The notes beneath the pieces are model-generated. The model ran no database searches. It was not told the origin of the DNA and was given only the letters and a program-made list of their open reading frames with translations. Shown piece after piece: positions 7,087-56,610 of a stretch of 59,970 nt of DNA; the first letter of the stretch is position 1, and each line of letters opens with the position of its first letter. The stretch is from positions 1 through 59,970 of IMG/VR virus record IMGVR_UViG_3300030101_003657. The stretch is one strand, 5' to 3'. This DNA is from a virus (Duplodnaviria; Caudoviricetes). The translations under genes were made by a program, and so were the position numbers.

Positions 7087-7087
7087 C

Positions 7088-9915: not shown

Positions 9916-9920
9916 AATTA

Positions 9921-10184: not shown

Positions 10185-10185
10185 A

Positions 10186-10338: not shown

Positions 10339-10342
10339 AACA

Positions 10343-10906: not shown

Positions 10907-10910
10907 TATT

Positions 10911-11528: not shown

Positions 11529-11955
11529 AGATAGCAAAATAGGTGCTTTCTTAAAAAACAAAGCACCTAAAATACTTAAAACCATTGGGGATGTGCTACC
11601 TGATAAAGGTGGTCTTGGTATAGTAAAAAATATTATATCAAGTGATTCTAGTATTGGGCCAGAAGATAAAGAAATGGCTTTAAAAATATTAGAGCAAGAA
11701 ATCGCTGAAATGGATAACATTTCAAGAAGGTGGGAAAGTGATATGAAAAGTGACTCATGGCTTAGTAAAAATACAAGACCTATGACACTTATTTTCCTAA
11801 CGTTGTCAATGACGATATTTATAGTACTAGATTCAACAGTGCTATTAGAAATTAAAACAGGTTGGGTTTCATTATTAGAAGCTTTACTTATAACAGTTTA
11901 TGTAGCATACTTTGGATCTAGAGGTGCTGAAAAGATTACAAAAATAAAAAAATAA
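11500..11955 (+). CDS. Holin-like membrane protein (GTA 3TM holin type)
   Basis: RWESDMKSDSWLSKNTRP followed by two TM helices and YFGSRG. Confidence 0.65.
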   Translation: MSEKKRKKLKDSKIGAFLKNKAPKILKTIGDVLPDKGGLGIVKNIISSDSSIGPEDKEMALKILEQEIAEMDNISRRWESDMKSDSWLSKNTRPMTLIFLTLSMTIFIVLDSTVLLEIKTGWVSLLEALLITVYVAYFGSRGAEKITKIKK

Positions 11956-11960
11956 ACAAA

Positions 11961-12884
11961 ATGAAAGGTGTACAAGGAAATCAGGCCGCTCAAGTACGAA
12001 TGTTTGCACATGACGCAATACCAGTAGCTATAGGTGCAATAAACAAAGAAAACGGCATAACAGTAGACTCTGGTGGTTATGGTTATAAAGTAGGAGATGA
12101 AGAGACTTTAACTGTAGCAAGTGGCACTGCAGCTACTATAAAAGTTACAGGTGTAGGTAAACAAGATATTATAAACGTTCAAGCACAAACTGGTCAACAG
12201 TTTTACTTAAATGGAATACAGCTTTTAACTGATAAATTAGTTTTATTAAGAGGTAAAACTTACACTTTTTACCAAAAAGCATCTTCAAACAGTACTCATA
12301 TTTTAGAGTTTAGTTCAACAGATCCTGATACTTCCCCCACTTCTTATGCTACAGGTGTAGATCCAACTGGAACACCAGGCACAACTGGAGTAATAACATT
12401 TACAGTTGCTTCTGATGCTCCTGATGATTTGTGGTATTACTGCTCTGCTCACCCTAATATGGAAGGACAAATAGAAATAAAAGATAGCGGTGATGATTTT
12501 TTTGACACTTACCCAAATAACAACGCTATAAGAACAGCTGAAATAGTTAGAGCTGCAGGCGCTAAACCTTTTGGTAAAGGATATACTATTGGAGAGCAGG
12601 TTCAAACCAGCTCAGAGTCATTTAATACTGACAGTCCGTCTGCTTTTATATTCAAAGTAGCTAGTATAGATTTATCTAGTACTATGGATAGAGGAGCTTG
12701 TTTATACGTAGCTGAAAAATTAGCAACACTAGAGTTAAAAACAGAGAGCGACGAGTATGTAACTTTTAAAAATATTCCAGCTGGAACTTTTATGCCTGTT
12801 TTAGCTAAAGAAATAAAAACAGCAACTTTAGATAGAGATGGTAATCCAACCATAGGTGACAACGACGTAATAGCACTTTACTAA
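11961..12884 (+). CDS. Virion structural protein with an internal cupredoxin-like domain
   Basis: LLRGKTYTF...STHIL...LWYYCSAHPNMEG. Confidence 0.6.
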   Translation: MKGVQGNQAAQVRMFAHDAIPVAIGAINKENGITVDSGGYGYKVGDEETLTVASGTAATIKVTGVGKQDIINVQAQTGQQFYLNGIQLLTDKLVLLRGKTYTFYQKASSNSTHILEFSSTDPDTSPTSYATGVDPTGTPGTTGVITFTVASDAPDDLWYYCSAHPNMEGQIEIKDSGDDFFDTYPNNNAIRTAEIVRAAGAKPFGKGYTIGEQVQTSSESFNTDSPSAFIFKVASIDLSSTMDRGACLYVAEKLATLELKTESDEYVTFKNIPAGTFMPVLAKEIKTATLDRDGNPTIGDNDVIALY

Positions 12885-16955: not shown

Positions 16956-17175
16956 CATAATTAGAAAGATTAGCATAGGTTCTGATTATAAAAACGACGC
17001 TATGCATTATTCTATTGGTCAAGAAGTATATGGTGGTCACATTATATGTGATATATTAAATAATGAAAAAAGCGGAGAGTATTCTATTTATATAAAAAAA
17101 AATAACGAAGTACTTCCTTGGAAAAGATTTAATAGTCAAATGGCTATAGCTGTAGAATTTGATCTTAAATACTAA
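16948..17175 (+). CDS. Hypothetical phage protein
   Basis: ORF coupled to neighbours. Confidence 0.7.
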   Translation: MSSIIRKISIGSDYKNDAMHYSIGQEVYGGHIICDILNNEKSGEYSIYIKKNNEVLPWKRFNSQMAIAVEFDLKY

Positions 17176-17768
17176 TGAAAAGTTTATATCAGTTTTTAGT
17201 AAAGCCATATTCTAGTAGATATGATAATACTAGAGATATAGATGGCAAAGAATTAATTATAAATACAAGTATTGAAGATCATAAGTTTGTAAGCAAAAAA
17301 GCAGTTGTTGTATCTACTCCAATTGCTTTTAATACAGAGGTTAAGTGTGGTGATATAGTTTACGTTCATCATAATATTTTTAGAAGATACTATGATATGA
17401 AAGGTAAAGAAAAAAACTCATCTACCTTTTTTAAAAATGAATTATACTTTTGTAGCCTAGATCAAGTATATATGTATAATTTAAAACCACATTTAGATTA
17501 TTGTTTTGTAAAACCAATATTAAATAAATCACATCTAAGCAGTGAAAAAGAGCAAGAACATTTTGGTATACTAAAATACTCTAATAAGTCCTTAGAAGCT
17601 GTAGGATTAAAACCTGGAGAACTTGTGATATTTACACCCAACTCTGAATTTGAGTTTATTATAGAAGGCGAACGTCTTTATTGTATGAAATCTAATGATA
17701 TAGCATTAACTTATGAACACGAAGGAAACGAAAAAGAAAATAATCCAAGCTGGGCAAAAAGCAGTTGA
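17175..17768 (+). CDS. GroES-like protein, possibly tandem domains
   Basis: Two GroES-like segments: FLVKP...AVVV...VKCGDIVYV and CFVKP...LKPGELVIF...IEGERLYCM. Confidence 0.5.
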   Translation: MKSLYQFLVKPYSSRYDNTRDIDGKELIINTSIEDHKFVSKKAVVVSTPIAFNTEVKCGDIVYVHHNIFRRYYDMKGKEKNSSTFFKNELYFCSLDQVYMYNLKPHLDYCFVKPILNKSHLSSEKEQEHFGILKYSNKSLEAVGLKPGELVIFTPNSEFEFIIEGERLYCMKSNDIALTYEHEGNEKENNPSWAKSS

Positions 17769-17985
17769 CGAGTTAATAAAAGTAGCAAAAGAACCTATTG
17801 TAGATACAGGTGAAGATGTTACAGCAGATAGACTTAAAAATGCAGCTGCAACTAAAAAGTTAGCTATATTTGATGCTTTTGAAATACTAACTAGAATACA
17901 AGAAGAAGAAGATATATTAAACGAAAAACCAAAACAAGATAAAAAAGAAAGAGTATTTAAGTTTGCCGAAGGGAGGAGTAAGTGA
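17713..17985 (+). CDS. Putative terminase small subunit
   Basis: Small helical protein overlapping the start of the large terminase. Confidence 0.5.
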   Translation: MNTKETKKKIIQAGQKAVDELIKVAKEPIVDTGEDVTADRLKNAAATKKLAIFDAFEILTRIQEEEDILNEKPKQDKKERVFKFAEGRSK

Positions 17986-20207
17986 TTTACAAACAAACTT
18001 TATATGAAGAGTTAGAAGATTATATAAATCCTAAGCTACTTAAAAAAGAAAATAGGTATAATAAGTGGAAATATGGTTATAACTCTGATTATGATTTTAT
18101 AGTAATTAGTAAAACAGGTAAGATTGGAAAGGTCATTGAAATACAAAATCTCAGAATTGCTTTACCGGCAATCAATAAACCGTTTAAACGAAGCGAAAGA
18201 AAAGCAGAACAATACTGGGAAAAGCAAGAGTACCCAAAGGCTTTAAGTAAAATTAAAAGTAGATTCGACTGGGATGAATACCCAAATGAATTTAAAGAAA
18301 AATGGTACGATTATATAGATGAAGAATTTAAACGTAGATCAGACGGTTACTGGTTTTTTAATAACGGTATGCCTACTTATATCACTGGTTCTCATTACAT
18401 GTATTTGCAATGGTCAAAAATTGACATCGGAGCTCCCGATTATAGAGAGTCAAATAGACTCTTCTTCATATTTTGGGAAGCATGCAAAGCAGATAATAGA
18501 TGTTATGGAATGTGCTATCTTAAAAATAGACGGAGTGGATTTTCTTTTATGTCCTCAGCTGAGCTCGTTAACCAAGCCACAATATCTAGTGATGCAAGAT
18601 TCGGTATCCTTTCGAAGTCTGGAGCAGATGCTAAGAAAATGTTCACAGATAAAGTTGTACCAATATCCGTTAACTATCCGTTTTTCTTCAAACCAATCCA
18701 AGACGGTATGGACCGTCCAAAGACCGAACTGGCATATAGAGTACCCGCTTCAAAGCTTACTAGGCGTAAACTAGAAACAAACGAACAATTAAAAGAATTA
18801 CAAGGTCTTGACACAACTATAGACTGGAAAAATACGGGGGACAACTCTTACGATGGTGAGAAATTAAAATTATTAGCACACGATGAATCAGGAAAATGGG
18901 AACGACCAGACAATATATTAAACAATTGGAGAGTTACAAAAACTACATTAAGACTAGGAAGACGTATAGTAGGCAAGTGTATGATGGGCTCAACTTCAAA
19001 CGCTTTAGATAAAGGTGGAAACAACTTCAAAAAATTATACTACGATTCAAACGTTACAAAAAGAAATAAAAACGGACAAACAGCTACTGGCCTCTATTCT
19101 TTTTTCATCCCTATGGAGTGGAACTACGAAGGATTCATGGATACTTTTGGATTACCTGTATTCACTACGCCTGAAAATAAAAAAATCGGAAGAGATGGTT
19201 TTGAAATTAAAGTCGGAGTAATAGAGCATTGGGAAAATGAAGTAGAAGGATTAAAGCACGATCAAGATAGTTTAAACGAATACTATAGACAGTTTCCAAG
19301 AACAGAGCAACATGCTTTTAGAGATGAAACTAAAAACAGCTTATTTAATCTCACTAAAATATACGAACAAATAGATTATAATGAAGAAGTAAATAATATT
19401 TCTTCTACTACTAGAGGTAGCTTTATATGGCAGAACGGTGTTAAAGATACTAGCGTTTCATTTATTCCCAATAAAAACGGTAGATTTAAAATATCTTGGG
19501 TTCCTTCTAAAAATTTACAAAATAAAGTAATTGTAAAAAATGGTACTAAATATCCTGGAAATGAACACATTGGAGCTTTTGGTTTAGACAGCTATGATAT
19601 ATCTGGCACTGTCGATGGGAAAGGGTCTAACGGGTCTCTTCACGGTCTAACCAAGTTTTCAATGGAAGATGTTCCACCAAATCATTTTTTTTTAGAATAT
19701 ATATCAAGACCTCAAACAGCTGAAATATTTTTTGAAGATATACTAATGGCTTTAGTTTTTTATGGCATGCCTATACTTGCTGAAAATAATAAACCTAGAT
19801 TTTTGTATTATTTAAAAAGAAGAGGTTATAGAGGTTTTAGCATGAATAGACCAGATAAAATTTGGAACAAGCTATCAATAACGGAAAAAGAAATAGGTGG
19901 AATACCTAACTCAAGTGAAGATATAAAACAAGCCCACGCTGCTGCAATTGAATCTTATATAGAAACTTATGTTGGTCGTTCTGAAAACGGGTTTGGAGAT
20001 ATGTATTTTCAAGAAACGTTAGAAGATTGGGCTCAATTTAATATAAACAATAGAACAAAGCACGATGCTTCTATTAGCTCTGGGCTAGCTATAATGGCTT
20101 GCAATAAAAATATGTATAGGCCAATACCTGAAAAAGTAAAACAAGTTTACAACTTTGGTATAAAAAAATATAACAACAATGGAAGTTTATCTAAAATAAT
20201 AAAATAA
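17982..20207 (+). CDS. Terminase large subunit
   Basis: KNRRSGFS Walker A, LLAHDESGK Walker B, GSTSN coupling motif, GLDSYD nuclease motif, HDASIS. Confidence 0.88.
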   Translation: MIYKQTLYEELEDYINPKLLKKENRYNKWKYGYNSDYDFIVISKTGKIGKVIEIQNLRIALPAINKPFKRSERKAEQYWEKQEYPKALSKIKSRFDWDEYPNEFKEKWYDYIDEEFKRRSDGYWFFNNGMPTYITGSHYMYLQWSKIDIGAPDYRESNRLFFIFWEACKADNRCYGMCYLKNRRSGFSFMSSAELVNQATISSDARFGILSKSGADAKKMFTDKVVPISVNYPFFFKPIQDGMDRPKTELAYRVPASKLTRRKLETNEQLKELQGLDTTIDWKNTGDNSYDGEKLKLLAHDESGKWERPDNILNNWRVTKTTLRLGRRIVGKCMMGSTSNALDKGGNNFKKLYYDSNVTKRNKNGQTATGLYSFFIPMEWNYEGFMDTFGLPVFTTPENKKIGRDGFEIKVGVIEHWENEVEGLKHDQDSLNEYYRQFPRTEQHAFRDETKNSLFNLTKIYEQIDYNEEVNNISSTTRGSFIWQNGVKDTSVSFIPNKNGRFKISWVPSKNLQNKVIVKNGTKYPGNEHIGAFGLDSYDISGTVDGKGSNGSLHGLTKFSMEDVPPNHFFLEYISRPQTAEIFFEDILMALVFYGMPILAENNKPRFLYYLKRRGYRGFSMNRPDKIWNKLSITEKEIGGIPNSSEDIKQAHAAAIESYIETYVGRSENGFGDMYFQETLEDWAQFNINNRTKHDASISSGLAIMACNKNMYRPIPEKVKQVYNFGIKKYNNNGSLSKIIK

Positions 20208-22586
20208 ATGCAGATACAAACTTATAATGGTAGTTCGTTTCCTGATCAGGTGGTACCTGAAGAGGTAAAGCAGAGTATAGATTATGGTAGACAAGTAGGT
20301 AGAGCTATAGAAGGAGATTGGTTTAGTGGAACTAGAACAGGTGTTTCTGGTAGATATAATACCAACTATAATAATTTTAGAAACTTAAGATTATATTCTA
20401 GAGGCGAACAATCTGTTCAAAAGTATAAAGATGAGTTAGCCATAAATGGTGACTTATCTTATTTGAATTTAGATTGGAAGCCCGTACCTATTATACCAAA
20501 ATTTGTAGATATTGTTGTTAATGGTATGGATAGTAAAGTTTTTGAAGTTAAAGCTTTTGCACAAGATCCAGAGTCGTTAAAAAAAAGAACTAAGTACGCA
20601 GAAGCTATAATGCGTGATATACAAGGTAAAGAGCTTATAGATAAAATTAAGCAAGTTACCAACATGGACATGTATTCTACTTCTAATCCAGAAAATCTAC
20701 CTCAAAACAGTGAAGAGCTAGGGGTACATATGCAGCTTACTTACAAGCAGTCTATAGAAATTGCAGAAGAAGAAGCTATAAATAATACACTTGCATTTAA
20801 CAAATACGAACTAACTAAAAGAAGAGTTGCTCAAGATTTAGTTGTTTTAGGTATTGGTGCTGTTAAAACTAATTTTAATTTATCTGAAGGTGTAACTGTA
20901 GAGTATGTTGATCCTGCTAACCTTGTTTATTCTTACACGGAAGATCCTAATTTTCAAGATATATGGTATGTAGGTGAAGTTAAATATATTAGCTTAAGTG
21001 AAATTAAAAAAGAATTTCCCACATTAACAGATTCCGAATTAGATGAAATACAAAAATATCCAGGTAGTAAAAGTTATAACTATCAATTCAATGGTAGAAA
21101 TGACGGTAACAGTATAGCAGTTCTTTATTTTGAGTATAAAACTTATCAAGATCAAGTATTTAAAATTAAAGAAACACCAACTGGATTAGAAAAAGCTTTA
21201 GAAAAACCTGACACTTTTAATCCTCCAAAAAGCGATAACTTTGAAAGAATATCTAGATCTATAGAAGTTGTTTATGAAGGTGCTAAAATACTAGGTCATG
21301 AGATGATGTTAAAGTGGGGTTTAGCTAGAAATATGGTTAGACCAAATTCTAATCTAGTTAAAGTCAATATGAGCTACAACATATGTGCACCTAAAATGTA
21401 TAAAGGACGTATAGAGTCTTTAGTTGGTCGTATGACAGGTTTTGCTGATATGATACAACTAACACACTTAAAACTGCAGCAGGTATTATCTAGATTAGTG
21501 CCAGACGGTGTATTTTTAGATGTAGATGGCTTGGCAGAGGTTGATCTAGGTAATGGTACTAATTATAATCCAGCCGAAGCTTTAAATATGTATTTTCAAA
21601 CTGGTAGTATACTAGGTAGATCAATGACTCAAGAAGGCGGAGCTAACCCTGGTAAAGTCCCAATACAAGAACTACAAACTTCAGCTGGTGGTGCTAAAAT
21701 GCAGTCTCTCATACAGACTTATCAATATTACTTACAGATGATAAGAGACGTTACGGGGTTAAATGAAGCTAGAGATGGTAGTTCTCCTGATCCCAACTCT
21801 CTTGTTGGTTTACAGAAACTAGCAGCTGCAAATTCAAATACAGCAACTAAACACATTGTTCAAGCTAGTTTATATCTATCTGCTAAAATTTGTGAAAATA
21901 TAGCTTTAAGAATATCTGATGCTTTAGAATATCCTTTGACAAGAGAAGCCTTAAGATCTAGTATAAGCTCTTATAATGTAGGCACGTTAGAAGATATGTA
22001 TAATTTAAATTTATTTGAGTTTGGTATATATTTAGAGCTAGTTCCAGATGAAGAAGAAAAAGCTCAATTAGAGCAAAATATTCAAATAGCTTTAAAAACA
22101 CAATCTATAAATTTAGAAGATGCTATAGAGATTAGGCAAATAAACAATTTAAAACTAGCTAATCAAGTATTAAAAATTAAAAGAAAAGAAAAAGCAGAAT
22201 CAGATAGAAAAGCTCAACAAGCCAACATACAAGCTCAGGCCAATGCTAACGCTGAGGCTTCTGAAAGAGCTGCTTTAGCTGAAATGCAGAAACAACAAGC
22301 TTTAGCTCAAACAGAACTTCAAATAGAACAAGGCAAGTCACAATTTGCTATTAAAAAAATGGAGCAAGAAGCAGCAATAAAAAGACAATTAATGGAACTT
22401 CAACATTCTTACAACGTGGAATTAAAACAAATGGAAGTTGATAGAATGGCTGAAAAAGAAAAACTAATAGAAGATAGAAAAGATAAGCGAGTTAGACAAG
22501 AAGGAACTCAGCGAAGTCAATTAATAAATCAAAAACAAAATGATTTATTACCTACAAACTTTAACGACAATAGTATTGTTGAATAA
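20208..22586 (+). CDS. Portal protein
   Basis: Follows terminase; PIIPKFVDIVVNG, VTGLNEARDG, Q/E-rich C-terminal helix. Confidence 0.8.
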   Translation: MQIQTYNGSSFPDQVVPEEVKQSIDYGRQVGRAIEGDWFSGTRTGVSGRYNTNYNNFRNLRLYSRGEQSVQKYKDELAINGDLSYLNLDWKPVPIIPKFVDIVVNGMDSKVFEVKAFAQDPESLKKRTKYAEAIMRDIQGKELIDKIKQVTNMDMYSTSNPENLPQNSEELGVHMQLTYKQSIEIAEEEAINNTLAFNKYELTKRRVAQDLVVLGIGAVKTNFNLSEGVTVEYVDPANLVYSYTEDPNFQDIWYVGEVKYISLSEIKKEFPTLTDSELDEIQKYPGSKSYNYQFNGRNDGNSIAVLYFEYKTYQDQVFKIKETPTGLEKALEKPDTFNPPKSDNFERISRSIEVVYEGAKILGHEMMLKWGLARNMVRPNSNLVKVNMSYNICAPKMYKGRIESLVGRMTGFADMIQLTHLKLQQVLSRLVPDGVFLDVDGLAEVDLGNGTNYNPAEALNMYFQTGSILGRSMTQEGGANPGKVPIQELQTSAGGAKMQSLIQTYQYYLQMIRDVTGLNEARDGSSPDPNSLVGLQKLAAANSNTATKHIVQASLYLSAKICENIALRISDALEYPLTREALRSSISSYNVGTLEDMYNLNLFEFGIYLELVPDEEEKAQLEQNIQIALKTQSINLEDAIEIRQINNLKLANQVLKIKRKEKAESDRKAQQANIQAQANANAEASERAALAEMQKQQALAQTELQIEQGKSQFAIKKMEQEAAIKRQLMELQHSYNVELKQMEVDRMAEKEKLIEDRKDKRVRQEGTQRSQLINQKQNDLLPTNFNDNSIVE

Positions 22587-26499: not shown

Positions 26500-27216
26500 A
26501 TGGCTATAAACGTAAACAAAGTATATAAGTCTGTACTTGTAGTACTACAACAAGAAAAAAGAGGTGTATTAACACCTACTGAGTTTAATAAAATTGCAAC
26601 TCAGTCCCAGCAGGAGATATTCACAGATTACTTTGATGAGTTGAACCAGCTGTTAAGACAACCTCAAACTAGCTTAGCTTATGCCGATAGATACGCTATG
26701 TTAGATGAAAAAATATCATTATTTAAAAGAACAGATACTGAATCAACCAATCAGGATTCTAACTTATCTATAAGTAATGTTCAAGAACTTGGTTCTGTTG
26801 TTTATTTTGAAACACCAACAAGTGAAGGAAGAGAAGTTCAAAGAATACAAAAATATGAAGTTTACACTACTAATCAATCTCCTCTTACGGCGCCTACAAA
26901 ATTCTACCCTGTGTATACTTATGAAAATAATGTTATACAACTGTACCCAACATCTATTGGTCAAGGCAATAACAATATTCAGGTTAATTACTTGAAATAT
27001 CCTGATGACATAAAGTGGGGTTTTACTATTGATACAGAACTTGGTAATTACATTTATAATCCTTTAGATTCTGTAGATCCAGAAATACATGAATCAGATC
27101 AACCATTATTGATAGATAAAATACTAGGTTATGCTGGTGTTATGACTAGAGACCAACTAGCGTTACAAATGTCAGCTAGTAAAGAACAACAAATAGACAT
27201 TGAAGGACAAAAATAA
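26500..27216 (+). CDS. Tail ring/adaptor protein, type A paralog 1
   Basis: MAINVNKVY...EKRGVLTPTEFNK, paralogous to 27847. Confidence 0.6.
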   Translation: MAINVNKVYKSVLVVLQQEKRGVLTPTEFNKIATQSQQEIFTDYFDELNQLLRQPQTSLAYADRYAMLDEKISLFKRTDTESTNQDSNLSISNVQELGSVVYFETPTSEGREVQRIQKYEVYTTNQSPLTAPTKFYPVYTYENNVIQLYPTSIGQGNNNIQVNYLKYPDDIKWGFTIDTELGNYIYNPLDSVDPEIHESDQPLLIDKILGYAGVMTRDQLALQMSASKEQQIDIEGQK

Positions 27217-27846: not shown

Positions 27847-28650
27847 ATGGCTATTAATGTAAACACGGTATATACAACTGTATTGAGTATTCTTAATAAA
27901 GAACAACGTGGTTATTTAACACCATATGAGTTTAATAAAGCTGCTACACAAGTTCAACTAGACATATTTGAAAAATACTTTACTGATCTAGATACTCAAT
28001 TAAGAATACCTCAGAACAATTTTAACTACGTAAATACTGAAACTAATTTAGATGATGAGATATCTATATTTAAATGTTTTGGATCTTGTGATTATGTAAC
28101 TCAGGATGGTTATTTTTCTTTACCAGAAGAAGACGATTTATCAGGTTTTGATATAGTATTTGACGATCAACCAGAAAGTGACGAGTATGCTTTTTATAGA
28201 CTAGGAACAGTTGTATATGACCCCGTGGACTCAAGTGGTAATAGTACAAGAGATTATAAAGAAGCACAAAGACTTCAAAGAAACGACTTTTACAATATAG
28301 ATAGATCAGATTTAACGGCTCCTAGTGAAAACTTTCCAGTTTATCTATATGAAAACAATCAAATAAGAGTAAAACCAACGACAATAAGTACTGAAGTTTA
28401 TGCTAGCTTTATAAGGAAACCAAAAGATGTTAGATGGGGTTATACTGTTAATTCCAATAATGGTGCTTTCGTTTATGACTCTACACCTTTTGATTCATCT
28501 AATTTGCCTACAACAGAGGGATCAACAAATTTTGAAATAAGTAGTAATAATCAAACAGAAGTAATATTAGAAATACTTAAATATGCTGGTGTAGTTATAA
28601 GAGATCCTCAAATAGTACAAGCAGCGGCTCAAGAATTAGCTCAAAAATAA
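27847..28650 (+). CDS. Tail ring/adaptor protein, type A paralog 2
   Basis: MAINVNTVY...KEQRGYLTPYEFNK. Confidence 0.6.
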   Translation: MAINVNTVYTTVLSILNKEQRGYLTPYEFNKAATQVQLDIFEKYFTDLDTQLRIPQNNFNYVNTETNLDDEISIFKCFGSCDYVTQDGYFSLPEEDDLSGFDIVFDDQPESDEYAFYRLGTVVYDPVDSSGNSTRDYKEAQRLQRNDFYNIDRSDLTAPSENFPVYLYENNQIRVKPTTISTEVYASFIRKPKDVRWGYTVNSNNGAFVYDSTPFDSSNLPTTEGSTNFEISSNNQTEVILEILKYAGVVIRDPQIVQAAAQELAQK

Positions 28651-38386: not shown

Positions 38387-41300
38387 ATGGAAGAATTTAG
38401 ACCACCTGCAGATGCTGTAGAATTAGTAAGTAATGTTTTTATTCCACCATCAGACGCTATAGAGGTTTCTCAACAAGACGACGAAAAAAAGAAGAAAGCT
38501 GTTACAGAGAACACTGCGAATGTAGCAGCGGAAGATCAAAGCAGTACGGATTTATTATCGGGAAATGGTTCGTCGGACTCTCAAAAAAATAAAAAACCTA
38601 TTGTTTCTAGAGAGGATTTTAAATTAGAAGAAGATGAGTTTATTAAGAAAGTTTCTGAAAATCCTTTATTATCTCATTTAAAAATACAAACTACTTTTCA
38701 ACCTGGATATGATCAAATATATGTAAAAGGCTCCACAGGTGAGGAAGAGTTTGATCTAGACAGTAAGTGGAATAACTCTTTAAGTAGTATGGGCCCAGGT
38801 AGTACTCCTGATCCAACGGCTGGTGATAAAGAATATAAAAGGTTTTTAGATTTTATTGAAAAAGAAATAGCTACATCTTCACCAGAAGCAAAAACTTTAG
38901 GTAGAAAAGGATTAGCAGAGTTTCAAAACGAAGATGGATCTTACGAATTAGAGCATATAGATTATTTTCAAAAAAAGAAAATTAAATTCAACGAACAAGA
39001 AGCTGTTAAAGTAGTAGAAGGCATAGAGAACGAAGTAGAAGAAACTCTTGCCAATGCTAACAAAATGTTAGGCTTAGCTGAAGATGAAGCAGGTTTGTTA
39101 CCTACCTTAAATGATGATCAAAAATCTAAATTAAGAAGACAATCTTACAACAATTACAGAGCTCAAGAAAAAGTAATAAAAGACGAAAATGCCAATATTG
39201 CTAATAAAGCCGGAGCTAACATAACTGAAGAATCTTTTAACAAAATATTTAACGCTGTATATGATGACGCTTATGCTAAAGCTAATCAAAGATCTATAAC
39301 AGATTACAACAATTACACATCTAAGTTTGAAAGAAGTGAGGATTTTAAAAACAATTTTAATGATGAAATGCTTTCTATTGGTGACAATAGAGAGTTATCA
39401 GAGTTAAATAAAAAAATTACTAGTTCTCAAGAAGCTATAGATAACTACACCGATAGATTAGAAAATGAAAACACGACACCAAATGAAAGAGCTTCTATAC
39501 AAAGTCAACTAAATAAAGCTATAAAAAATAAAGAAGATAATATAAAAAAGTTTGAGGAAAAAAGTAAAATATTTTCTTTCAGTATAGAGGGTGAGCAAAA
39601 TATAAGTAGACTTACAGATGCTAGTGGTAATTGGATAAACCAAACTGTTGTTGATGAAGAAAGTAGAAAATCATTAAATAAGTTAGTTAAATCTACAGAG
39701 CAATCTGCTTTAATAGAAGCTAATGTAAGTAATCCTTCTAATCCTAAGTTATCTCCAGCTGAAAACTTAAGAAATATGAGTGATGATGCTGTTTATAACT
39801 TACAAAAAGCTATTGAAGTTGGAAACGAAAGAAAAGTATTTATACCTTTCGATGTTTCAGAAGCTGGATCTAGTTCTGTTCTTGAATTTTTACCTGGACA
39901 AAAAGCTATCTGGTCTAAAATGATAAAAATACCTGGTGTTAATATTAAGAATTTAACTAATAAAAGTGGTGCTGAATTAACTTATTCTCAACTAGCTCAA
40001 GCAGGTATAAACTCAGAAGAGTTTGAAGGTATTATAGATCAATTTGGCATTAGCTTAGATAAAGATAGAGATCTTTTTGGTGATGCTGGCTTAATTAGTC
40101 AAAAAGAAATAGATCAATATAAAGCTTGGGAAAAAAAATATAGAGAAGAAAAAGCTGTAGCTACAGGCTTGTGGAACGCTACAAATTTAAATCAAGACTA
40201 CGGTAGTATAACTAAACCTGGAGATAAGTGGTATGATATACCAGGTCATCTCAACAATTTAGCTAGCTCTACTACTGGAACTTTTTCCGAACGATGGTTT
40301 GATGCTAGTCCTTCTGAAGCTAAAAAAGCTAGAGGTTTTGGTAGTGAAAAAGGAAATGAAGCTGATATAACTAAAGAACTTAATATATTAAAAGATCAAT
40401 ATAATAACTCACAAGCTGTAAAAGACGGTGAGTTAAAAAGTATTGAATTTACAAAAGACCAAGAAAAAGCATTATCTAGTACGATGTATCAAGACGTAGC
40501 AAATGGTGTTGGTGAGTTTGTGCCTATGATAATTGAATTAGCTGCTGTTAGTTTAGCTACTGAAGGTGCTGCTACTATACCAATGATCGCTTCTAGATTA
40601 TCTAGGATGGCACCTTTGACAAAACATTTACTTTACGGTGGTATTGAAGAAGTTAAAATGCAAGCGCTATTTGATATGCCACCAACGGGTGGTGCTGCCT
40701 TTTATACTTTAGGCCATGCTACTCGTAACATGTTCAAGTTTTCAGGTCCATTGAGGTTTTTACAAGGAGCATTTGACAAGACAATAAAGTCAGGTGTTAT
40801 TGGTGCTGCTTCTTCAGAATTTGCTCATTTAACAGAAAAAGGTTTTGAACAATTAGCTGGAGATGGGACTTCTTTTTCTAATGAGTTTAATAAATTTTAT
40901 TCTGACCAAGATGAAGTTACTAAGCGTATAATAACTAACGCTGCGGTATTTGGTTTAACTGGAGTTCATAATCTTAAAAAACTAGATTACTCTACTCAAA
41001 GAATGAAATTTAATACGCTTAATGAAATAAGTAACAAGATAGAAGCTATAGAGAAAGATATAAGTGATAGAAAAAGTAATATAGATAAATTAGAAAAGAA
41101 AGGCGGTGTAATTATACCTAAAGAGTTAGAGGTTAAGTTAACACCTGAAGACATTAAAAAATATGCTACAAAGGAAGAGCTACAGAAGCTAGATCAATAC
41201 ACTAGTGATTTTTATAATGTTAACAAAATGTTTCAAGCAGAGGCTTTAGCTAAAGGTTTAGATCATAAAAAAGTCCCACTACAAGAATTTGAAAAAAACT

Positions 41301-44300
41301 TTAACAACGCTTATACTAAGCCAATAAATGAAATGCTAAACAAACTAACTGGTGGCAATTATAATCCACCTGAAGTAAAGTTTACAACTGATAGAGAGTT
41401 TTTTACTGGAAACGAAACGGCTAAGTACGTCTCTGGCGCAGGTAAATCAAAAGGAGGAGTTATATATTTTGATATAAACAAGTATGTTCCTGGTAAAGCT
41501 ATACATGAATTCACTCACTTAGCTTTAGATATTTTTCACAAACAAAACCCAACAGCTAAAGAAAATATGTTAAAAAAGTTTAGCGAAATGTTTAAAGGTG
41601 TTGATTTAGGAGAGGTTACTGGAAACAAAAATATAGAGGGTTTTAAAGGTGAAGAACTGATGGAGGAGGTAGGTGAAGCTTATAAGCCTGAAATAATAGA
41701 AGCTTCAACAAGAGCTGGTAATGCAAAAGCTGGAGAGATGTTAAAGCAAGAGGAGTTTGTTACGTTTATAGCTGAAATGCTTACCAAGCCTGAGTTCTAT
41801 TATCAAAACACTAAAAAGGCTAGTAACATACTTAAAGACATGAAAGATTATGTTACTAACGTACTGCAAGGTAACGGAATGATGGAGGTTAAAGCACCTG
41901 AAACAGCTCAAGAAATGGTTAACTTAATTGTTAACATGGGTGAAAATGTTAGACAAGGTAGACAGTTTACTAATCAATTTGAAAAAGCTTTTTTAAAAGA
42001 TATAAATATAGAGGGTTTATATTTTGAGCAAAAACTATCTGGCAATCCAGAAGGTAAGTCTAGTTTTGTAGAAACAAAAGCTAACGCTAAAGCTTCTAAA
42101 GATTTAGTTGAAAGTATAGTTGAAGAAAATACTAGGTTAGTAGGAGATCTTAAAGAAGCTATAGAGTCTGAAAATTTAACCAAACAAATAGATATAAAGA
42201 ACGATTTAGCTTTAAACAATGAGCCTCTAATCCAAGACTTTGTTAATCAAAAATTCAAACCAGGTTTAGGTGTAACTAGAGATGAATTTAAATCAGGAGT
42301 TTACAGTCATGTTTTTGATAAAGTAAACAAAACTTATAATCCAATAAAAAACCCTGAGTATGGAGCTTATTTAAGACAAGTACTATTTGGAGGTGGTGGT
42401 TTTGGCGGAGGCCGACTTGGTGATATATTAAGAGAAATAGGTCAAAAAGAAGATTTATTTCTCAAAAGTACTGAAGATCCTAACGTGCAAAGAGAACTAA
42501 AAAATATAGAACAAGATGCTCCAGCACCTGTAGAAACTTCTAAAAAAGGAGATATTGTAGTGGCAAAAGAATTAAATAAAAGATTGAATAATGTAGCTGA
42601 GCCATTAGTGTCTGCTATTAAAGAAAAAATACCTACTGATCTAAAATTACAAGAAGAGTTTTTAAAAGATAAAACTTATAAAACTTTAAAAGATTTAGCA
42701 GCTAAAGAAACTCAAGAGATGTTTGGTATAAAACCAAAGCCAGGTAATTTAACTAAGTCAGATGTTAAAAACGCTCAAATGTTTATTAACAGAAATCCTG
42801 ACTTATTTTATTCTTTACTACCTAAACAACATACTACTAAAAGAGTTAACATTGGAACCAAAAACGAACCTAAGTTTGTAACTAGGCCAGATAAAGCAAC
42901 TGGAGTTCAAAACGTGTTGTTAGACGCTTTTTATAATAAAGGAACTAGAAAAGATAACTTAACACCTTGGACTAAAAAACCTTCTTCAGATGTTAAAACA
43001 GCAGAGTTTTTAGAATTATTTGGTATAACAGATAGAAACAATCCAAACCTATACAAGAAAGATAGCAATGTTAGTGCCAGAATAAAAGCTTTAGTTGAAC
43101 AAACAGGTAGAATAATTACTAATCAAACTGTAAGAGAAGTTACAGGAGCCACAAAAGTAGGAGAAGGTAGAGCAGAAACTATGGCTTCTAAAGAATTAGT
43201 TGAGTCTTTATTGGGAGCTTATGATCTTGTTTCTAAAAATAGAATACTTACTAAAGCTGATAAAGCAAGGTTATTAAAAACTTTAACTAAAGAAAACGAA
43301 AAGAAAGAAATAAGAGACTTAGACGGTGCTAGATTATTTGCTGCTATTGAAAGAGGTTTAAAGAGAGAAGACATAAAGAAAGTAAGTGACTTAAACTTAG
43401 ATAAAGACATAGAGTTGTTTGAGCAGTTAACTATAGAGGATATTGCTAGAAGAGAAGAGATCACACCTGCTGAAGTTAGAGAAAGATACATGAGTGAAGA
43501 AATGGCTTCTATAACTGATGGTAAGAAACTAAAAGCTAGTATGCCTGGAACAGTATATAGATCAGCTGAAGAAAGAGGAAAATCTGCTACTTTTAAAAAA
43601 GCTAAACCTTATCACATAGCTTTGATAGAGGAGATGATACCTAGAGGATCTAAGTTTAGTGAAATGCCACAGAAATACCAAAAAATGGTAATGAGCACTA
43701 TGGGTATGGGGGATTCTAGAGGTAAAACAAATGGTAAAAGTTTTACGTTTAAACAATATAATGTTGCGGAGGGGAATTACACTGGTTTATTAGAGGCTGT
43801 ATACGGCATAAAAGAAGCAAATTTAAAAGGTAAAGGAGAACCTATTGAATCATTTGCTGAAAACATCAACATATCATCTCCAGGTGGTGGTAAGAAAAAA
43901 ATTACTGAAGCTGAAATTAAATCTAGTAGTGTAGAAGAATTCCAAAAATTAGCCGGCAAAGCTATATTAGGTAGAGGACAAACAAGTGTTGACAAAGTTT
44001 TAAATGCTAATAAAGAGTCTTTAAAAAGAATATATAATTCTGCTAAAAATGTAGTTAAAAATGCTAAAGATCCTATAAAAGCTTTAGATCATATAATAGA
44101 CTTAATGCTTGCTCAAACTAATAGATCCATAGGTGGGATTAAAGGTTTAGCTGGAATTGAAAGTGCAACTATGGAAGGTATGAGAGGTTCTAATCCAGAG
44201 CTAGCAAAAGAACTTCACAATGAACACTTAACTGAGTTACTTACCATGACTAAGAACTTTGGTAAGATGATGGAAAGGTTTATTAATAAAGAACAATCTT

Positions 44301-47300
44301 CAAGAAGCGTTGATCTTCAGCTAGACAGAATGGTTGAAGATTATAACCAAGGTGTAATAAGTGAACAGCGTAGAGAGCTTAAGGATTTTACTGGTGCTTC
44401 TAAAATGGATTATTTTAACAATAAACTATTCTTAGGTAAAGATGCTTTTAAACAAATACCATTAAGCGAATCTACATTTGCTGAAGCAAAAAACATGGCT
44501 GAGGTTATAAGAAATGAAGCTACAAAATCTATATTAGATAAAATTAAAAACACACCTTATAGTAAATTAACTCTCACTGGCGTTATTGCTAAACAAAAAA
44601 TTGAAAACGCTAAAGAAATAAAAAAAGTAGAAAGCTCAAATAGAAAAGTTGCTGAACAAGCATCTATGGCTAGTAAAGATATGTCTACTTCTAGAATTGT
44701 AAAAGAGTTAAATAAAAGAGATGAAGCTTTAAGATTAGCTCACAAAGCTAATAAAGTAGTTAAGAAAGCTAGGGTTTTTGATTTTGATGACACAGTTGCT
44801 AGAACTAATAGTAAAGTGTTCGCTACTAGAGGTAATGATAGAAAAGTTTTAACAGCTGAAGAGTTTGCAAAACAAGGAGAAGGATTAGTCAATGAAGGTT
44901 GGAAAATGGATTTTTCAGACTTTAATAGAGTTGTTGAAGGTAAAAAAGGACCTTTGTTTGAAGTTATGAAAAAAATGAAAGAAGCAGCTGGTGATAGAGA
45001 CATGTTTATATTAACAGCTAGAGCTCCTGAATCTGCACCTGCTATCAAAAGATTTTTAGATGCTATGGGTATTAAAATACCTTTAGAAAATATAACTGGT
45101 TTAGGTAATTCAACTGGTAAAGCTAAGGCTGATTGGTTAGTTGGCAAAGCAGCAGAAGGTTATAATGACTTTTATTTTGCCGACGATGCTAAACAGAATG
45201 TTAAAGCCGTTCGTGACGCGTTAGAGGTTTTAGATGTTAAATCTAAAGTTCAACAAGTTTATGCTGCTAGAGATTTATCAGGTGAATTTAATAGAATACT
45301 AGAAGAAAAAACGGGTATAGGTAGAGAAAAAGTATTTTCAGATATTAAAGCTGAAATAAGAGGTAACAAAGCTAAGAAAGTAAAATTCTTTATACCACCG
45401 TCAGCTGAAGACTTCTTAGGTTTATTATATAGTACCTTACCTAAAGGTGAGAAAGGAACTAAAGCTTTAGATTTTTATCAGAAAAACTTATTTGATCCAT
45501 ATACTAGAGCTACTGATAACTTATCTACAGATAGAGTTAATTTAATGGCTGATTTTAAAGCGCTTAAAAAAGAATTAGACGTACCTAAAGATCTTAGAAA
45601 ACAAACTGAATCTGGTTTTACTAACGAACAAGCTGTTAGAGTTTATTTGTGGAATAAAACTGGAATAGAAATACCTGGTTTGTCTAAAAGTGATTTTAAA
45701 GAGTTATATGATATCGTGCAGAAAAATCCTAAACTTCAAGCTTTTGCTGAGCAAATATTAAGCATAACTAAAGGTGATGGTTACTCTGTTCCAGGTCAGC
45801 ATTGGCAAGCTGGAACTATAACAACAGATCTTATAGATGTTTTAAATACCACAAAAAGAGCTAAGTATTTAGAACCTTGGAAAGAAAACATTGATATTAT
45901 TTTTAGTAAAGAAAATATGAACAAGCTTGAAGCTGCTTTTGGTCCTAAATATAGAGAGGCTATGGAGAACATACTTACAAGGATGAAATCTGGCAGCAAT
46001 AGAGTAGCTGGTGGAAATAGGCTAAGCAATCAAGTTTTAGATTACGTAAATCAGTCAACAGGTGTTACAATGTTTTTTAACACCAGATCAGCATTATTAC
46101 AAACTATATCATCTGCTAACTTTATTAATTGGAGTTTTAACAATCCACTTAGAGCAGGGCAAGCTTTTGCTAATCAACCTCAATACTGGAAAGACTTTGT
46201 TGAATTAATGAACTCTGACTATTTAAAAGATAGACGTAATGGTTTAAAATTAAATATATCTGAAAGCGAAATAGCAGATGCTGCCAAAACATCTAAGAAT
46301 AAGGCTAAAGCAGCTATTAGTTATATAATAGAAAAAGGTTATATGCCAACTAGGTTTGCTGATAGTTTTGCTATAGCGTCCGGTGGCGCTATGTTTTATA
46401 GAAATAGAATAAAAGATCTTGTTAAAAAAGGAATGACAGAAGCAAAAGCTAAAGAAATAGCAATGAAAGAGTTTAGACAAGCTTCTGAAAAATCTCAACA
46501 GTCTTCTGATCCAAGTAAGATATCTCAACAACAAGCTGGTGATTTAGGTAGAATAATATTACAATATGTTAATACACCTATGCAATACGCTAGAATCCAA
46601 AAAAGAGATATACAAGATATAATTAATAGAAGACCTATGCAAGGTAAAACATTGGCTCAAAGTAATAGAATTAGACTATCAAGAATAGCTTATTATTCTT
46701 TCTTACAGAATTTAATGTTTAACGCTCTACAACAAGGAGCATTTGCTTTAGGATTTGGAGATGACGACAAAGAGTTGACAGAAAAACAAATGGAAAGTAA
46801 GGCTAAATTTAAACAAGATAAGTTATTTAACACCGTTAATGGTATGCTTGACTCTCAATTAAGAGGATTTGGCTTAGGTGGTGTTACTGTACAAGTTCTC
46901 AAAAACCTAGGTATAGACATATATAAAAGATCTAAAAAAGATAGACCTGAATATGTAGACTCTTGGATAACGTTGTTAGAATTTTCACCTTCTATAAAAA
47001 GCAAGTTATCTAGATTTAAATCAGCAGCTTATCCTTTTGACACTAAAAAACGAAGACAAGAGGTGTTTGATAAAGGATTTAGTTTAGATAATCCAGCTTA
47101 TGAATCCATGGCTAAGGTTATTACAGCTACAACTAATGTTCCACTAGATAGAATGTATAGCAAAATAGACAATCTTAAACATGCAATGGCTGATGAAACC
47201 GAAGCTTGGCAATCTGTTGCTAACGTGTTAGGATGGCCAAGTTGGCAGTTAGAGCAAAGAGAATACACTAATAACGTTGAGTTAACACCTATGCAAAAAG

Positions 47301-47665
47301 AAGTACAAAAGCAAACTAAAGAATACGAAAAATATAAAGAAGCTGAAGGATCAACTGATTACGAAGTTATAAAGAGGTTAAACTCTTCTCAACAAATTAA
47401 AATGTTAAAAGATTTAGGTTATGATAGTTATACAATTAAAAAAGCTAAATCAGAAAAAGACAAAATTAATTTAATAATAAAAGTAAATAGTGGAGAAGAA
47501 ATAAAAATAAATAAAGAAGAAAAAGAAGCTGCTAAATACAAAGCTTTAAGCAAGGCGGAGCAAGTAAGAAAACTAGATAGCTTAGGACTAAGTAAAGCTG
47601 CTATAAGAAAGTTAAAGTATGAAGCAGATAGAGTTAAAAAGCTTTTAAAATTAATGAATAAATAA
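38387..47665 (+). CDS. Giant (3092 aa) multidomain ejection/polyvalent protein: HExxH peptidase, sigma-like segment, HAD phosphatase
   Basis: HEFTH at aa 1040; sigma-region-2-like segment at about aa 1270-1345; DFDDT, ILTAR and FADD HAD motifs from aa 2132. Confidence 0.7.
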   Translation: MEEFRPPADAVELVSNVFIPPSDAIEVSQQDDEKKKKAVTENTANVAAEDQSSTDLLSGNGSSDSQKNKKPIVSREDFKLEEDEFIKKVSENPLLSHLKIQTTFQPGYDQIYVKGSTGEEEFDLDSKWNNSLSSMGPGSTPDPTAGDKEYKRFLDFIEKEIATSSPEAKTLGRKGLAEFQNEDGSYELEHIDYFQKKKIKFNEQEAVKVVEGIENEVEETLANANKMLGLAEDEAGLLPTLNDDQKSKLRRQSYNNYRAQEKVIKDENANIANKAGANITEESFNKIFNAVYDDAYAKANQRSITDYNNYTSKFERSEDFKNNFNDEMLSIGDNRELSELNKKITSSQEAIDNYTDRLENENTTPNERASIQSQLNKAIKNKEDNIKKFEEKSKIFSFSIEGEQNISRLTDASGNWINQTVVDEESRKSLNKLVKSTEQSALIEANVSNPSNPKLSPAENLRNMSDDAVYNLQKAIEVGNERKVFIPFDVSEAGSSSVLEFLPGQKAIWSKMIKIPGVNIKNLTNKSGAELTYSQLAQAGINSEEFEGIIDQFGISLDKDRDLFGDAGLISQKEIDQYKAWEKKYREEKAVATGLWNATNLNQDYGSITKPGDKWYDIPGHLNNLASSTTGTFSERWFDASPSEAKKARGFGSEKGNEADITKELNILKDQYNNSQAVKDGELKSIEFTKDQEKALSSTMYQDVANGVGEFVPMIIELAAVSLATEGAATIPMIASRLSRMAPLTKHLLYGGIEEVKMQALFDMPPTGGAAFYTLGHATRNMFKFSGPLRFLQGAFDKTIKSGVIGAASSEFAHLTEKGFEQLAGDGTSFSNEFNKFYSDQDEVTKRIITNAAVFGLTGVHNLKKLDYSTQRMKFNTLNEISNKIEAIEKDISDRKSNIDKLEKKGGVIIPKELEVKLTPEDIKKYATKEELQKLDQYTSDFYNVNKMFQAEALAKGLDHKKVPLQEFEKNFNNAYTKPINEMLNKLTGGNYNPPEVKFTTDREFFTGNETAKYVSGAGKSKGGVIYFDINKYVPGKAIHEFTHLALDIFHKQNPTAKENMLKKFSEMFKGVDLGEVTGNKNIEGFKGEELMEEVGEAYKPEIIEASTRAGNAKAGEMLKQEEFVTFIAEMLTKPEFYYQNTKKASNILKDMKDYVTNVLQGNGMMEVKAPETAQEMVNLIVNMGENVRQGRQFTNQFEKAFLKDINIEGLYFEQKLSGNPEGKSSFVETKANAKASKDLVESIVEENTRLVGDLKEAIESENLTKQIDIKNDLALNNEPLIQDFVNQKFKPGLGVTRDEFKSGVYSHVFDKVNKTYNPIKNPEYGAYLRQVLFGGGGFGGGRLGDILREIGQKEDLFLKSTEDPNVQRELKNIEQDAPAPVETSKKGDIVVAKELNKRLNNVAEPLVSAIKEKIPTDLKLQEEFLKDKTYKTLKDLAAKETQEMFGIKPKPGNLTKSDVKNAQMFINRNPDLFYSLLPKQHTTKRVNIGTKNEPKFVTRPDKATGVQNVLLDAFYNKGTRKDNLTPWTKKPSSDVKTAEFLELFGITDRNNPNLYKKDSNVSARIKALVEQTGRIITNQTVREVTGATKVGEGRAETMASKELVESLLGAYDLVSKNRILTKADKARLLKTLTKENEKKEIRDLDGARLFAAIERGLKREDIKKVSDLNLDKDIELFEQLTIEDIARREEITPAEVRERYMSEEMASITDGKKLKASMPGTVYRSAEERGKSATFKKAKPYHIALIEEMIPRGSKFSEMPQKYQKMVMSTMGMGDSRGKTNGKSFTFKQYNVAEGNYTGLLEAVYGIKEANLKGKGEPIESFAENINISSPGGGKKKITEAEIKSSSVEEFQKLAGKAILGRGQTSVDKVLNANKESLKRIYNSAKNVVKNAKDPIKALDHIIDLMLAQTNRSIGGIKGLAGIESATMEGMRGSNPELAKELHNEHLTELLTMTKNFGKMMERFINKEQSSRSVDLQLDRMVEDYNQGVISEQRRELKDFTGASKMDYFNNKLFLGKDAFKQIPLSESTFAEAKNMAEVIRNEATKSILDKIKNTPYSKLTLTGVIAKQKIENAKEIKKVESSNRKVAEQASMASKDMSTSRIVKELNKRDEALRLAHKANKVVKKARVFDFDDTVARTNSKVFATRGNDRKVLTAEEFAKQGEGLVNEGWKMDFSDFNRVVEGKKGPLFEVMKKMKEAAGDRDMFILTARAPESAPAIKRFLDAMGIKIPLENITGLGNSTGKAKADWLVGKAAEGYNDFYFADDAKQNVKAVRDALEVLDVKSKVQQVYAARDLSGEFNRILEEKTGIGREKVFSDIKAEIRGNKAKKVKFFIPPSAEDFLGLLYSTLPKGEKGTKALDFYQKNLFDPYTRATDNLSTDRVNLMADFKALKKELDVPKDLRKQTESGFTNEQAVRVYLWNKTGIEIPGLSKSDFKELYDIVQKNPKLQAFAEQILSITKGDGYSVPGQHWQAGTITTDLIDVLNTTKRAKYLEPWKENIDIIFSKENMNKLEAAFGPKYREAMENILTRMKSGSNRVAGGNRLSNQVLDYVNQSTGVTMFFNTRSALLQTISSANFINWSFNNPLRAGQAFANQPQYWKDFVELMNSDYLKDRRNGLKLNISESEIADAAKTSKNKAKAAISYIIEKGYMPTRFADSFAIASGGAMFYRNRIKDLVKKGMTEAKAKEIAMKEFRQASEKSQQSSDPSKISQQQAGDLGRIILQYVNTPMQYARIQKRDIQDIINRRPMQGKTLAQSNRIRLSRIAYYSFLQNLMFNALQQGAFALGFGDDDKELTEKQMESKAKFKQDKLFNTVNGMLDSQLRGFGLGGVTVQVLKNLGIDIYKRSKKDRPEYVDSWITLLEFSPSIKSKLSRFKSAAYPFDTKKRRQEVFDKGFSLDNPAYESMAKVITATTNVPLDRMYSKIDNLKHAMADETEAWQSVANVLGWPSWQLEQREYTNNVELTPMQKEVQKQTKEYEKYKEAEGSTDYEVIKRLNSSQQIKMLKDLGYDSYTIKKAKSEKDKINLIIKVNSGEEIKINKEEKEAAKYKALSKAEQVRKLDSLGLSKAAIRKLKYEADRVKKLLKLMNK

Positions 47666-55860: not shown

Positions 55861-56610
55861 TCACAGATAATCAAGCACTTGCGAGTGATCCACGTTTTCT
55901 ATTAATTTTTCTACAGCTTGCTTTTTTAGCTCTGAAACTCTTACATAAGCTGATACACCTTTAATACCTAATGCAGAAGCTATTTCATTAGCGGACCATT
56001 TAGGACCATCTAAACCATAGCTTTTGTTTAGAACAAACATTTCGTTCCACTCAAGATGTTTTAATAACAAACTCATTAAGTAAGCGTTGAGTAGTGTTTC
56101 GTTATAAGGATCTGACTTTTCAGGTATTTGATAAATCATATCTTCATCATCTTGCTTAGCATCGTAAGATAAAAATATAGAATTAAAAAACATCCTAACC
56201 ATTTTTTCATCTTTAGTGCTACGCATTTCATTAAGCTTATGCTCAGGTATACGCATTGTACCTCTATTTATATCAATAGCTCTACGTATTCCGCCTCTTA
56301 TTCTTTTAGCTAAAAATGATTTTAAAGTTTTCTCTACGTCGTCAGATGCAAATAGTTTTTCTCTATCTATTTTATCTACAGCTTTACATAGTTGTAAACT
56401 ACCTTCTTGTATTATATCCATTATAGACATAACACCTGAAGCTTCTTGACTTGTAGCAAACTTTCTACTTATGTTTTCTACTAAAGGTAAGAATATTACT
56501 TTTAACTCTACAGGTTTGTAATCTATAAATCTTTTTGTTTTTATACATTGTATAGCTATTTTAATATCTTCTTTGTATCTTATATAGTTCTTTACGTTAT
56601 ATTTTTTCAT
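55861..56610 (-). CDS. Phage sigma-70-family RNA polymerase sigma factor
   Basis: Region 2 LPLVENISRKF...DIIQEGSLQLCKAVDK, RIRGGIRRAI..MRIP; region 4 SANEIASALGI...VSELKKQAVEKL. Confidence 0.85.
   Translation of the reverse strand: MKKYNVKNYIRYKEDIKIAIQCIKTKRFIDYKPVELKVIFLPLVENISRKFATSQEASGVMSIMDIIQEGSLQLCKAVDKIDREKLFASDDVEKTLKSFLAKRIRGGIRRAIDINRGTMRIPEHKLNEMRSTKDEKMVRMFFNSIFLSYDAKQDDEDMIYQIPEKSDPYNETLLNAYLMSLLLKHLEWNEMFVLNKSYGLDGPKWSANEIASALGIKGVSAYVRVSELKKQAVEKLIENVDHSQVLDYL

Follow-up and report, generated by a model that had tools for sequence, protein, structure and literature searches.

In the polyproteins of RNA viruses, such as those cut by picornavirus 3C and potyvirus NIa, one short site motif marks each border between domains, and it varies in step with the part that bears the protease. 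In the giant phage SPN3US, packaged ejection proteins are reportedly cut at short motifs by the prohead protease. For the polyvalent proteins of phages, self-processing by their own metallopeptidase (MPTase) domain was proposed by Iyer, Burroughs, Anand, de Souza and Aravind in 2017, in an article that also describes an HExxxH variant of these peptidases (PMC5512222). According to the same article, DdrB of phage P1 also has an MPTase domain and undergoes proteolytic processing prior to its appearance in the head (PMC5512222). The virion RNA polymerase gp50 of phage N4, a giant ejected podovirus protein, is described as having a C-terminal domain with an HExxH subdomain, followed by an alpha-helical part of ~110 kDa without structural relatives (PMC13434306). 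Here we consider a giant late gene from an uncultured marine phage, located at 38387..47665 of the viral record IMGVR_UViG_3300030101_003657, a stretch of 59,970 bp (completeness estimate ~93%) that is called the window in what follows. Its product of 3092 amino acids (aa) combines a zincin-like domain with two modules that have no assigned function, a HAD phosphatase and a helical module that is conserved; a short peptide, termed here the junction peptide, recurs at the borders between these parts.

The protein shares with the phage-type polyvalent proteins its giant size, its late gene and a make-up of several domains, among them a single HExxH domain alongside enzyme modules; unlike those described, it matches no Pfam MPTase or LPD sequence model. 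Whereas one cut is described for P1 DdrB, the present protein has a series of joints, a comparison made by description only. The layout of N4 gp50, as described, is close to that of the zincin and the large helical module seen here, but gp50 is packaged unprocessed (PMC5512222) and no RNA polymerase module was found in the present protein. With the RNA-virus polyproteins it shares a recurring border motif, which here co-varies with the N-terminal body that bears the putative protease; it differs in coming from a double-stranded DNA phage, in having a putative metalloprotease, and in that its products would probably be cargo of the virion and not proteins for replication. To the 2017 proposal the present analysis adds the junction peptide and the lineage-private variation of this peptide, since in the text of that article the word 'linker' is absent and 'cleavage site' occurs in the reference list only. 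In a literature search no account of junction motifs in proteins of this kind came up (supplementary files of the cited papers apart).

Junction peptides at the module borders

The original prediction had read the giant protein as a self-cleaving polyprotein, with an HEFTH motif, a downstream QEEF and four related hexapeptides at apparent domain borders. All six were reproduced exactly at their amino acid and nucleotide positions, and homology breakpoints, conservation in homologues and predicted linkers agree in placing the hexapeptides at module borders. Overall, the junction peptide very probably has a function as a signal, with a partner specific to each lineage as its reader. The layout of the protein is as follows.

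38387..47665, plus strand: giant late gene (3092 aa), the final gene of the structural block
38387..38587, plus strand: N-terminal 67 aa, 85% identity in the relative P0018
41279..41869, plus strand: zincin-like domain, about aa 965-1161, from structure model A and an alignment
41504-41518, plus strand: HEFTH, aa 1040, the only HExxH in the protein
41747..41758, plus strand: QEEF, aa 1121, containing the invariant E1123
42089..42106, plus strand: junction 1, KASKDL, aa 1235-1240
42107..43180, plus strand: module 2, aa 1241-1598, its C-terminal half (about aa 1420-1598) well conserved
42557..42574, plus strand: candidate for a weak fifth junction, VVAKEL, aa 1391-1396
43181..43198, plus strand: junction 2, MASKEL, aa 1599-1604
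43199..44665, plus strand: module 3, aa 1605-2093, mostly helical
44666..44683, plus strand: junction 3, MASKDM, aa 2094-2099
44684..45259, plus strand: HAD-type phosphatase module, aa 2100-2291, with DFDDT at aa 2132-2136
45260..45277, plus strand: junction 4, YAARDL, aa 2292-2297, ASKDL in clade relatives
45278..47266, plus strand: all-alpha C-terminal module, aa 2298-2960, conserved and common to the whole family
47267..47662, plus strand: K/E-rich variable tail, aa 2961-3092

The motif ASK[DE][LM] occurs three times in the protein, as against about 0.027 times expected from its composition and length, and is absent from the 53 other open reading frames (ORFs) of at least 80 aa in the window (15,311 aa). 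Homologues were compared as 120 listed proteins (119 for BLAST endpoints) out of at least 2584, and as 80 IMG/VR loci kept out of 271 related stretches. Of the 340 internal endpoints of BLAST high-scoring segment pairs (HSPs) to the 119 homologues, 59 fell no more than 5 aa to either side of one of the four sites (4.9 expected), as did 47 of the 211 for the 80 loci (3.1 expected), endpoints of related homologues being non-independent events. In the 119 homologues the HSP ends cluster at aa 2096 (22 starts), 1598-1608 and 2289-2303, and in several relatives without the HAD module the similarity to the query begins exactly at aa 2293/2294. The endpoints within 10 aa belong to sites 2, 3 and 4 only; no HSP endpoint lies within 10 aa of site 1, where the nearest HSPs end at aa 1248-1266. 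A further junction at aa 2004 was considered and rejected, as homologues have no motif there.

The four sites were further placed on two predicted structures, in which all of them lie in coil between modules. Model A covers aa 940-2136 (22 sequences; mean predicted local distance difference test score, pLDDT, 57), and model B covers aa 2060-3092 (46 sequences; mean pLDDT 73.5). Site 3 is a coil between two helices in both models, and site 4 overlaps a stretch of pLDDT below 50 (residues 226-235 of model B) between the HAD domain and the helical C-terminal module. In model A, sites 1 to 3 are coil, inside or abutting stretches of pLDDT below 50: site 1 within residues 271-311, and site 2 in coil 653-662 with a low stretch at 648-660. 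As 37% of model A is below 50, placement in it shows no more than that none of the sites is buried in a domain folded with confidence. Each of the four sites directly precedes a predicted helix.

In the query the junction serine is encoded by TCT at the first two sites and by AGT at the third, and 11 ASKDL instances in the loci are encoded by five different 15-mers with codon use near background. Since the junction serine codons differ and the 15-mers vary, selection appears to act on the peptide rather than on the DNA. Internal translation starts at MASK-type sites were ruled out, most homologue sites having no Met.

Two other short words may be recorded here. VVAKEL at aa 1391-1396 reads VVS[KD][KR]L in homologues and lies in a low-confidence stretch just ahead of breakpoints at aa 1403-1420, and it may be a weaker fifth joint that divides module 2. 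The hexapeptide KELNKR occurs twice in the query, at aa 1394-1399 (42566-42583), inside this possible fifth joint, and at aa 2106-2111 (44702-44719), seven residues after junction 3. Outside the giant gene, the PHROG 14543 virion structural protein (26500-27216, plus strand), which ends in ...QMSASKEQQIDIEGQK, has a junction-like word at aa 226-232, 12 aa from its C-terminus, that is missing from the paralogue at 27847-28650; this word may be either a chance match or a target in trans.

Lineage-private peptides and the N-terminal body

Among the 120 listed proteins, 54 have two to six copies of ASK[DE], six have one and 60 have none. The copies in the carriers align with the four sites of the query, extra inserted modules are flanked by additional ASKDL, and some site-1 joints are doubled (ASKEMASKDL). 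The place of the weak YAARDL reads ASKDLS.DFN in carriers of the clade, and on this alignment the fourth site is judged to be genuine. Thus the border motif is kept at aligned joints, although the particular form xASK[DE][LM], put forward originally as the cleavage site, is that of one clade and not the consensus of the family. The 60 proteins without ASK[DE], and most of the loci, have a different peptide at the same joints, which is again repeated within each protein. Such private pairs are MNTSEKM and LNTSEKM, NLSEKM and NASEKL, NMSERM and NASERL, KLSEDM and KFSEDM, and SQAKDI and SQAKDL; further private sets are KQAKDI (three to four copies), ISRSTK (three copies, in locus L049), KFSKTK with KFSKTV, KFSQGL, and NASNK-type peptides (four to five copies). 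In 153 distinct contexts of site 4, Ser is at position 0 in 113, K or E follows at +1, and L, M, V or I is at +3 in 125. From these alignments the core of the junction family is small/hydrophobic-S-[KE]-x-[LM], with xASK[DE]L in the clade of the query.

The change of the peptide is concerted within each protein. The site-4 heptamer scores 20.8 against the protein's own upstream region and 18.0 against those of others (n=72; reached by 0 of 10,000 permutations), and site 3 against site 4 scores 13.3 for own and 9.5 for others' (n=50; 0 of 20,000 permutations). Inherited similarity inflates these permutation tests; however, the pattern is seen separately in no fewer than eight distinct classes of motif. 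Hence the sequences show lineage-private, concerted variation of the junction peptides. Two further sources were set aside: a scan for private motifs outside the giant gene in five complete relatives (BLOSUM threshold) was too noisy and was left unused, and the standalone C-terminal modules (1322 shorter proteins, of which the 120 listed start at scattered internal Met residues, as is typical of genes cut by contig ends) are uninformative.

The class of the zincin-like domain, as given by the residues around HExxH, pairs with the class of the peptide: PGKxxHE with ASKD in about 49 of 50 cases, GGTxxHE with MNASE[KR] in 11 of 11, and GSTxxHE with LNTSE[KR] in 14 of 16. Similarity of the zincin region and similarity of the C-terminal module are uncorrelated (r=0.02); therefore, the two halves of the protein have been reshuffled. 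Among pairs of proteins whose C-terminal modules are at least 0.8 similar, those with similar zincins share 6.06 of 7 motif residues (n=360), as against 2.69 of 7 for those with dissimilar zincins (n=1511). When both flanks of site 4 were controlled, motif similarity still followed that of the zincin region (partial Mantel r=0.32, p=0.001, n=159).

P0018 provides a natural swap between two such lineages. It is 88.9% identical to the query over aa 2096-3092, with an unrelated middle and a different zincin class. Between near-identical flanks, MASKDM of the query is replaced in P0018 by MNTSEKM, and VYAARDL by ARMNASERL. Over the whole length, the first 67 aa are 85% identical, the next ~2000 aa unrelated and the last ~1000 aa 89% identical; since both ends are kept while the middle is swapped, signals for virion loading or ejection may reside in the termini. 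Overall, the sequence comparisons show that the version of the junction changes together with the N-terminal, zincin-bearing body.

The zincin-like domain and the fate of the joints

The most economical reading, which we favour tentatively and at a little short of an even chance, is that the junction peptide is cut by the protein's own zincin. The phage would then have a phage-type polyvalent protein built as a polyprotein. An N-terminal body of ~1235 aa, ending in the zincin-like HExxH domain, is followed by four modules, namely two without an assigned function, the HAD phosphatase and the conserved all-helical C-terminal module. The short exposed peptides that join the modules would be both recognition and cleavage sites, and the built-in zincin would cut them, freeing the modules, once the chain is in the particle, or has entered the cell, in its entirety. 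Each lineage keeps its own version of the peptide, which changes along with the N-terminal, zincin-bearing body. What we infer here is the cleavage of the peptide, the zincin as the cutter, and the timing. Cutting before assembly seems unlikely, because the upstream modules have no apparent route into the particle other than within the chain that carries the conserved termini; the cut could come inside the capsid or after ejection.

Several features of the zincin-like domain are consistent with this reading. Exactly one HExxH is present in 114 of the 120 proteins, at a comparable position, and HExxxH in four of the other six. In seven of seven aligned sequences H1040, E1041, H1044, E1090, E1123, E1130, P1135 and Y1139 are invariant, and E1123, within QEEF, is a candidate for the third zinc ligand. 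The region appears in model A (residues 26-222) as a helix, three strands and the HExxH helix, with pLDDT mostly 60-80 in this block and HExxH on a predicted helix at residues 98-114; this fit to the zincin topology comes from a model of mean pLDDT 57. The domain sits just upstream of the first junction site, and in 45 proteins with at least three motifs each, all 178 of 178 motifs lie downstream of HExxH, though 34% of the length lies upstream; the first motif follows HExxH by a median of 169 aa.

Other results weigh against this reading. A Pfam search with the zincin domain alone at E<=5 gave no peptidase family, the sole exception being a weak match to DUF3267 (E 0.049) for one of seven sequences, and at E<=0.1 the whole giant protein had only a spurious CREPT match. 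A PDB profile search with the domain (alignment A2) gave nothing below E 0.01, and Foldseek against PDB with model A returned just long helical-repeat noise. In one relative, L008, HExxH is replaced by EELFH, and [FL]SKSK is nevertheless retained at sites 3 and 4. An initial Mantel test restricted to the loci gave a negative result (n=70, partial r=0.0005, p=0.49), and when a pre-zincin window (230-400 aa upstream of HExxH) was also controlled, the zincin (r=0.19) and this window (r=0.17) performed equally; therefore, the reader is mapped just to the N-terminal body and not to the zincin specifically. Model A is poor, with 441 of 1197 residues below 50, so that low-confidence placement of the sites in it is weak evidence. 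Site 4 of the query has no Ser, and S-[KE]-x-[LM] right before a helix also resembles a helix N-cap. A complex prediction of the zincin domain with the site-3 peptide scored 0.18 against a mark of 0.32 and speaks neither for nor against binding.

An alternative is a functional joint that stays uncut, either as a docking tag for the N-terminal part, the virion or a chaperone partner, or as a helix-start or linker cassette that serves as a recombination seam. Homology breakpoints exactly on the motif and a predicted helix directly after every site both fit such a joint, the phage has its own GroEL and a GroES-like protein, and the N4 virion RNA polymerase, which also has an HExxH domain, is described as packaged uncut (PMC5512222). 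Against this, homologous exchange would have little to work with in a seam of 15-18 nt, whose codons moreover vary (TCT or AGT for Ser), and a pure helix cap would not be expected to change concertedly at more than one site of a protein. At site 4, P0018 departs from the query despite near-identical flanks on both sides, and because of these flanks the difference is no crossover product. We consider an uncut joint rather unlikely.

Cutting of the junction peptides by another protease, whether an unrecognised procapsid protease of the phage or a host protease, is a poorer candidate and appears improbable to us; the zincin would then have a different purpose, such as attack on host proteins or on the cell wall. 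The prohead proteases of phiKZ and SPN3US cut at S/A/G-x-E and herpesvirus assemblin between A and S, sites that A-S-K-[DE] resembles. The retention of motifs in L008 despite its broken HExxH fits this explanation as well, as do the lack of a family match for the zincin and a co-variation that does not single the zincin out. However, no prohead protease was found by PHROG scans of 40 of the 53 other ORFs or by Pfam scans of 10, and the motif is confined to the giant protein, being absent from the capsid-like, scaffold-like and portal ORFs; in both respects the locus differs from T4- or phiKZ-type prohead-protease substrates and from prohead-protease maturation in giant phages. The other 13 ORFs, all but one of them below 115 aa, lay outside those scans and, with several unannotated ORFs, are a possible source of such an enzyme. 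Lineage-private motifs speak against a conserved host enzyme, and the confinement of the motifs to the region downstream of the zincin speaks against another protease in general.

That a short word rich in K, E and S recurs merely by chance in a long protein leaning to low complexity is practically negligible as an explanation. A naive repeated-word search, swamped by K/E-rich near-repeats, does find several other three- to fourfold ones and does not rank the motif first, but chance is already contradicted by the counts given above, by the positional retention of the motif in dozens of homologues and by its coincidence with breakpoints.

Modules, gene neighbourhood and relatives

The HAD domain is tightly bracketed by the last two hexapeptides, as had been claimed, and PHROG 415 matches aa 2122-2295 (E 4.5e-4). 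All 46 of 46 aligned sequences have the motif I residues D2132, D2134 and D2135, as well as a number of residues further on, and at least 90% of them have T2136. The fold search with this module returned AphA and other HAD phosphatases with a probability of 0.95-0.97 and weak E-values of 0.3-0.6. The sigma-like segment placed between the first two hexapeptides has fared less well: a weak lead persists in one Atlas cluster, 10% of whose members have Sigma70_r2, but there is no Pfam match. An ORF at 55861-56610 (minus strand), separate from this segment, matches the PHROG family 'RNA polymerase sigma factor' (E 1.5e-14). For module 3 no family was found, and its Atlas search gave no usable result. 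P-loop kinase labels (Pfam Zeta_toxin, AAA_33 or CPT) are present in the relatives P0004, P0017, P0093 and several of P0146-P0174, and judged by module spacing these kinase domains probably adjoin the HAD module. Together with the match of the HAD module to PHROG 'polynucleotide kinase', they would resemble a kinase-phosphatase end-healing enzyme.

The C-terminal module has no fold match in PDB; with Foldseek against BFVD it gave 75 matches at E<=0.001 with probability 1.0, among them C-terminal pieces of many giant viral proteins named PolyVal ADP-ribosyltransferase, LPD-containing, MuF or nuclease. Since its predicted fold matches pieces of PolyVal, LPD and MuF proteins, the giant protein is assigned by fold to the class of phage polyvalent proteins.

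The late and virion context of the giant gene, judged from the genes alone, is given by its position downstream of a terminase, a portal, a capsid-like protein and virion structural PHROG families. The late block begins on the plus strand with the terminase and portal genes.

17982-20207, plus strand: terminase (PHROG match)
20208-22586, plus strand: portal (PHROG match)

Next on the same strand come a K/E-rich ORF of 377 aa, the structural protein that is capsid-like, and other PHROG 'virion structural proteins'. Identity of the portal is 41-51% with those of Flavobacterium, Cellulophaga, Maribacter and Tenacibaculum podoviruses. The nearest deposited phage, MW202828.1, has a giant gene of 3859 aa in a syntenic position, which is unrelated to the query protein by BLAST (best E 0.18). 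This gene (741-12320 of locus L003, minus strand) has two HExxH and no ASK-type motif, and a naive repeat search in it gave no clear junction word. A GroEL gene (4851-6401, plus strand; PHROG 5725, E 1.4e-134) and a gene for a GroES-like protein (17175-17768, plus strand; PHROG 13932) are also present in the window, and MW202828.1 likewise has groEL and a chaperonin-10 gene; the chaperonin genes could bear on the folding of the giant protein.

Neither aa 801-3092 nor aa 2296-2958 had a tblastn match among 50,697 cultured phage records, and single-protein searches for related loci with the zincin region and with module 3 gave no relatives. In the metagenomic protein collection, at least 2584 homologues at E<=0.001 were found among 7996 scored candidates. 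Because there is no match in cultured phages and yet at least 2584 metagenomic homologues and 271 related IMG/VR stretches, the family of the giant protein is taken to be a large uncultured clade.

The idea of 2017, in which the metallopeptidase of a polyvalent protein divides it into separate effectors, has so far been without defined cut sites. The present family supplies exact candidate sites, many natural variants of the code among its at least 2584 homologues, and a natural swap between the query and P0018; therefore, the hypothesis is testable with few constructs. Quite possibly, if not quite probably, double-stranded DNA phages use a true polyprotein strategy for injected cargo, in which a built-in metalloprotease and a lineage-private cleavage code would co-evolve. 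Upon module exchange the code at the new joints would then be rewritten, as between the 89% identical flanks of the query and P0018. If this is true, the module borders of giant phage proteins would be readable from sequence, work on each cargo enzyme could start from the very unit delivered by the phage, and polyvalent proteins would be modular, self-addressed effector cassettes.

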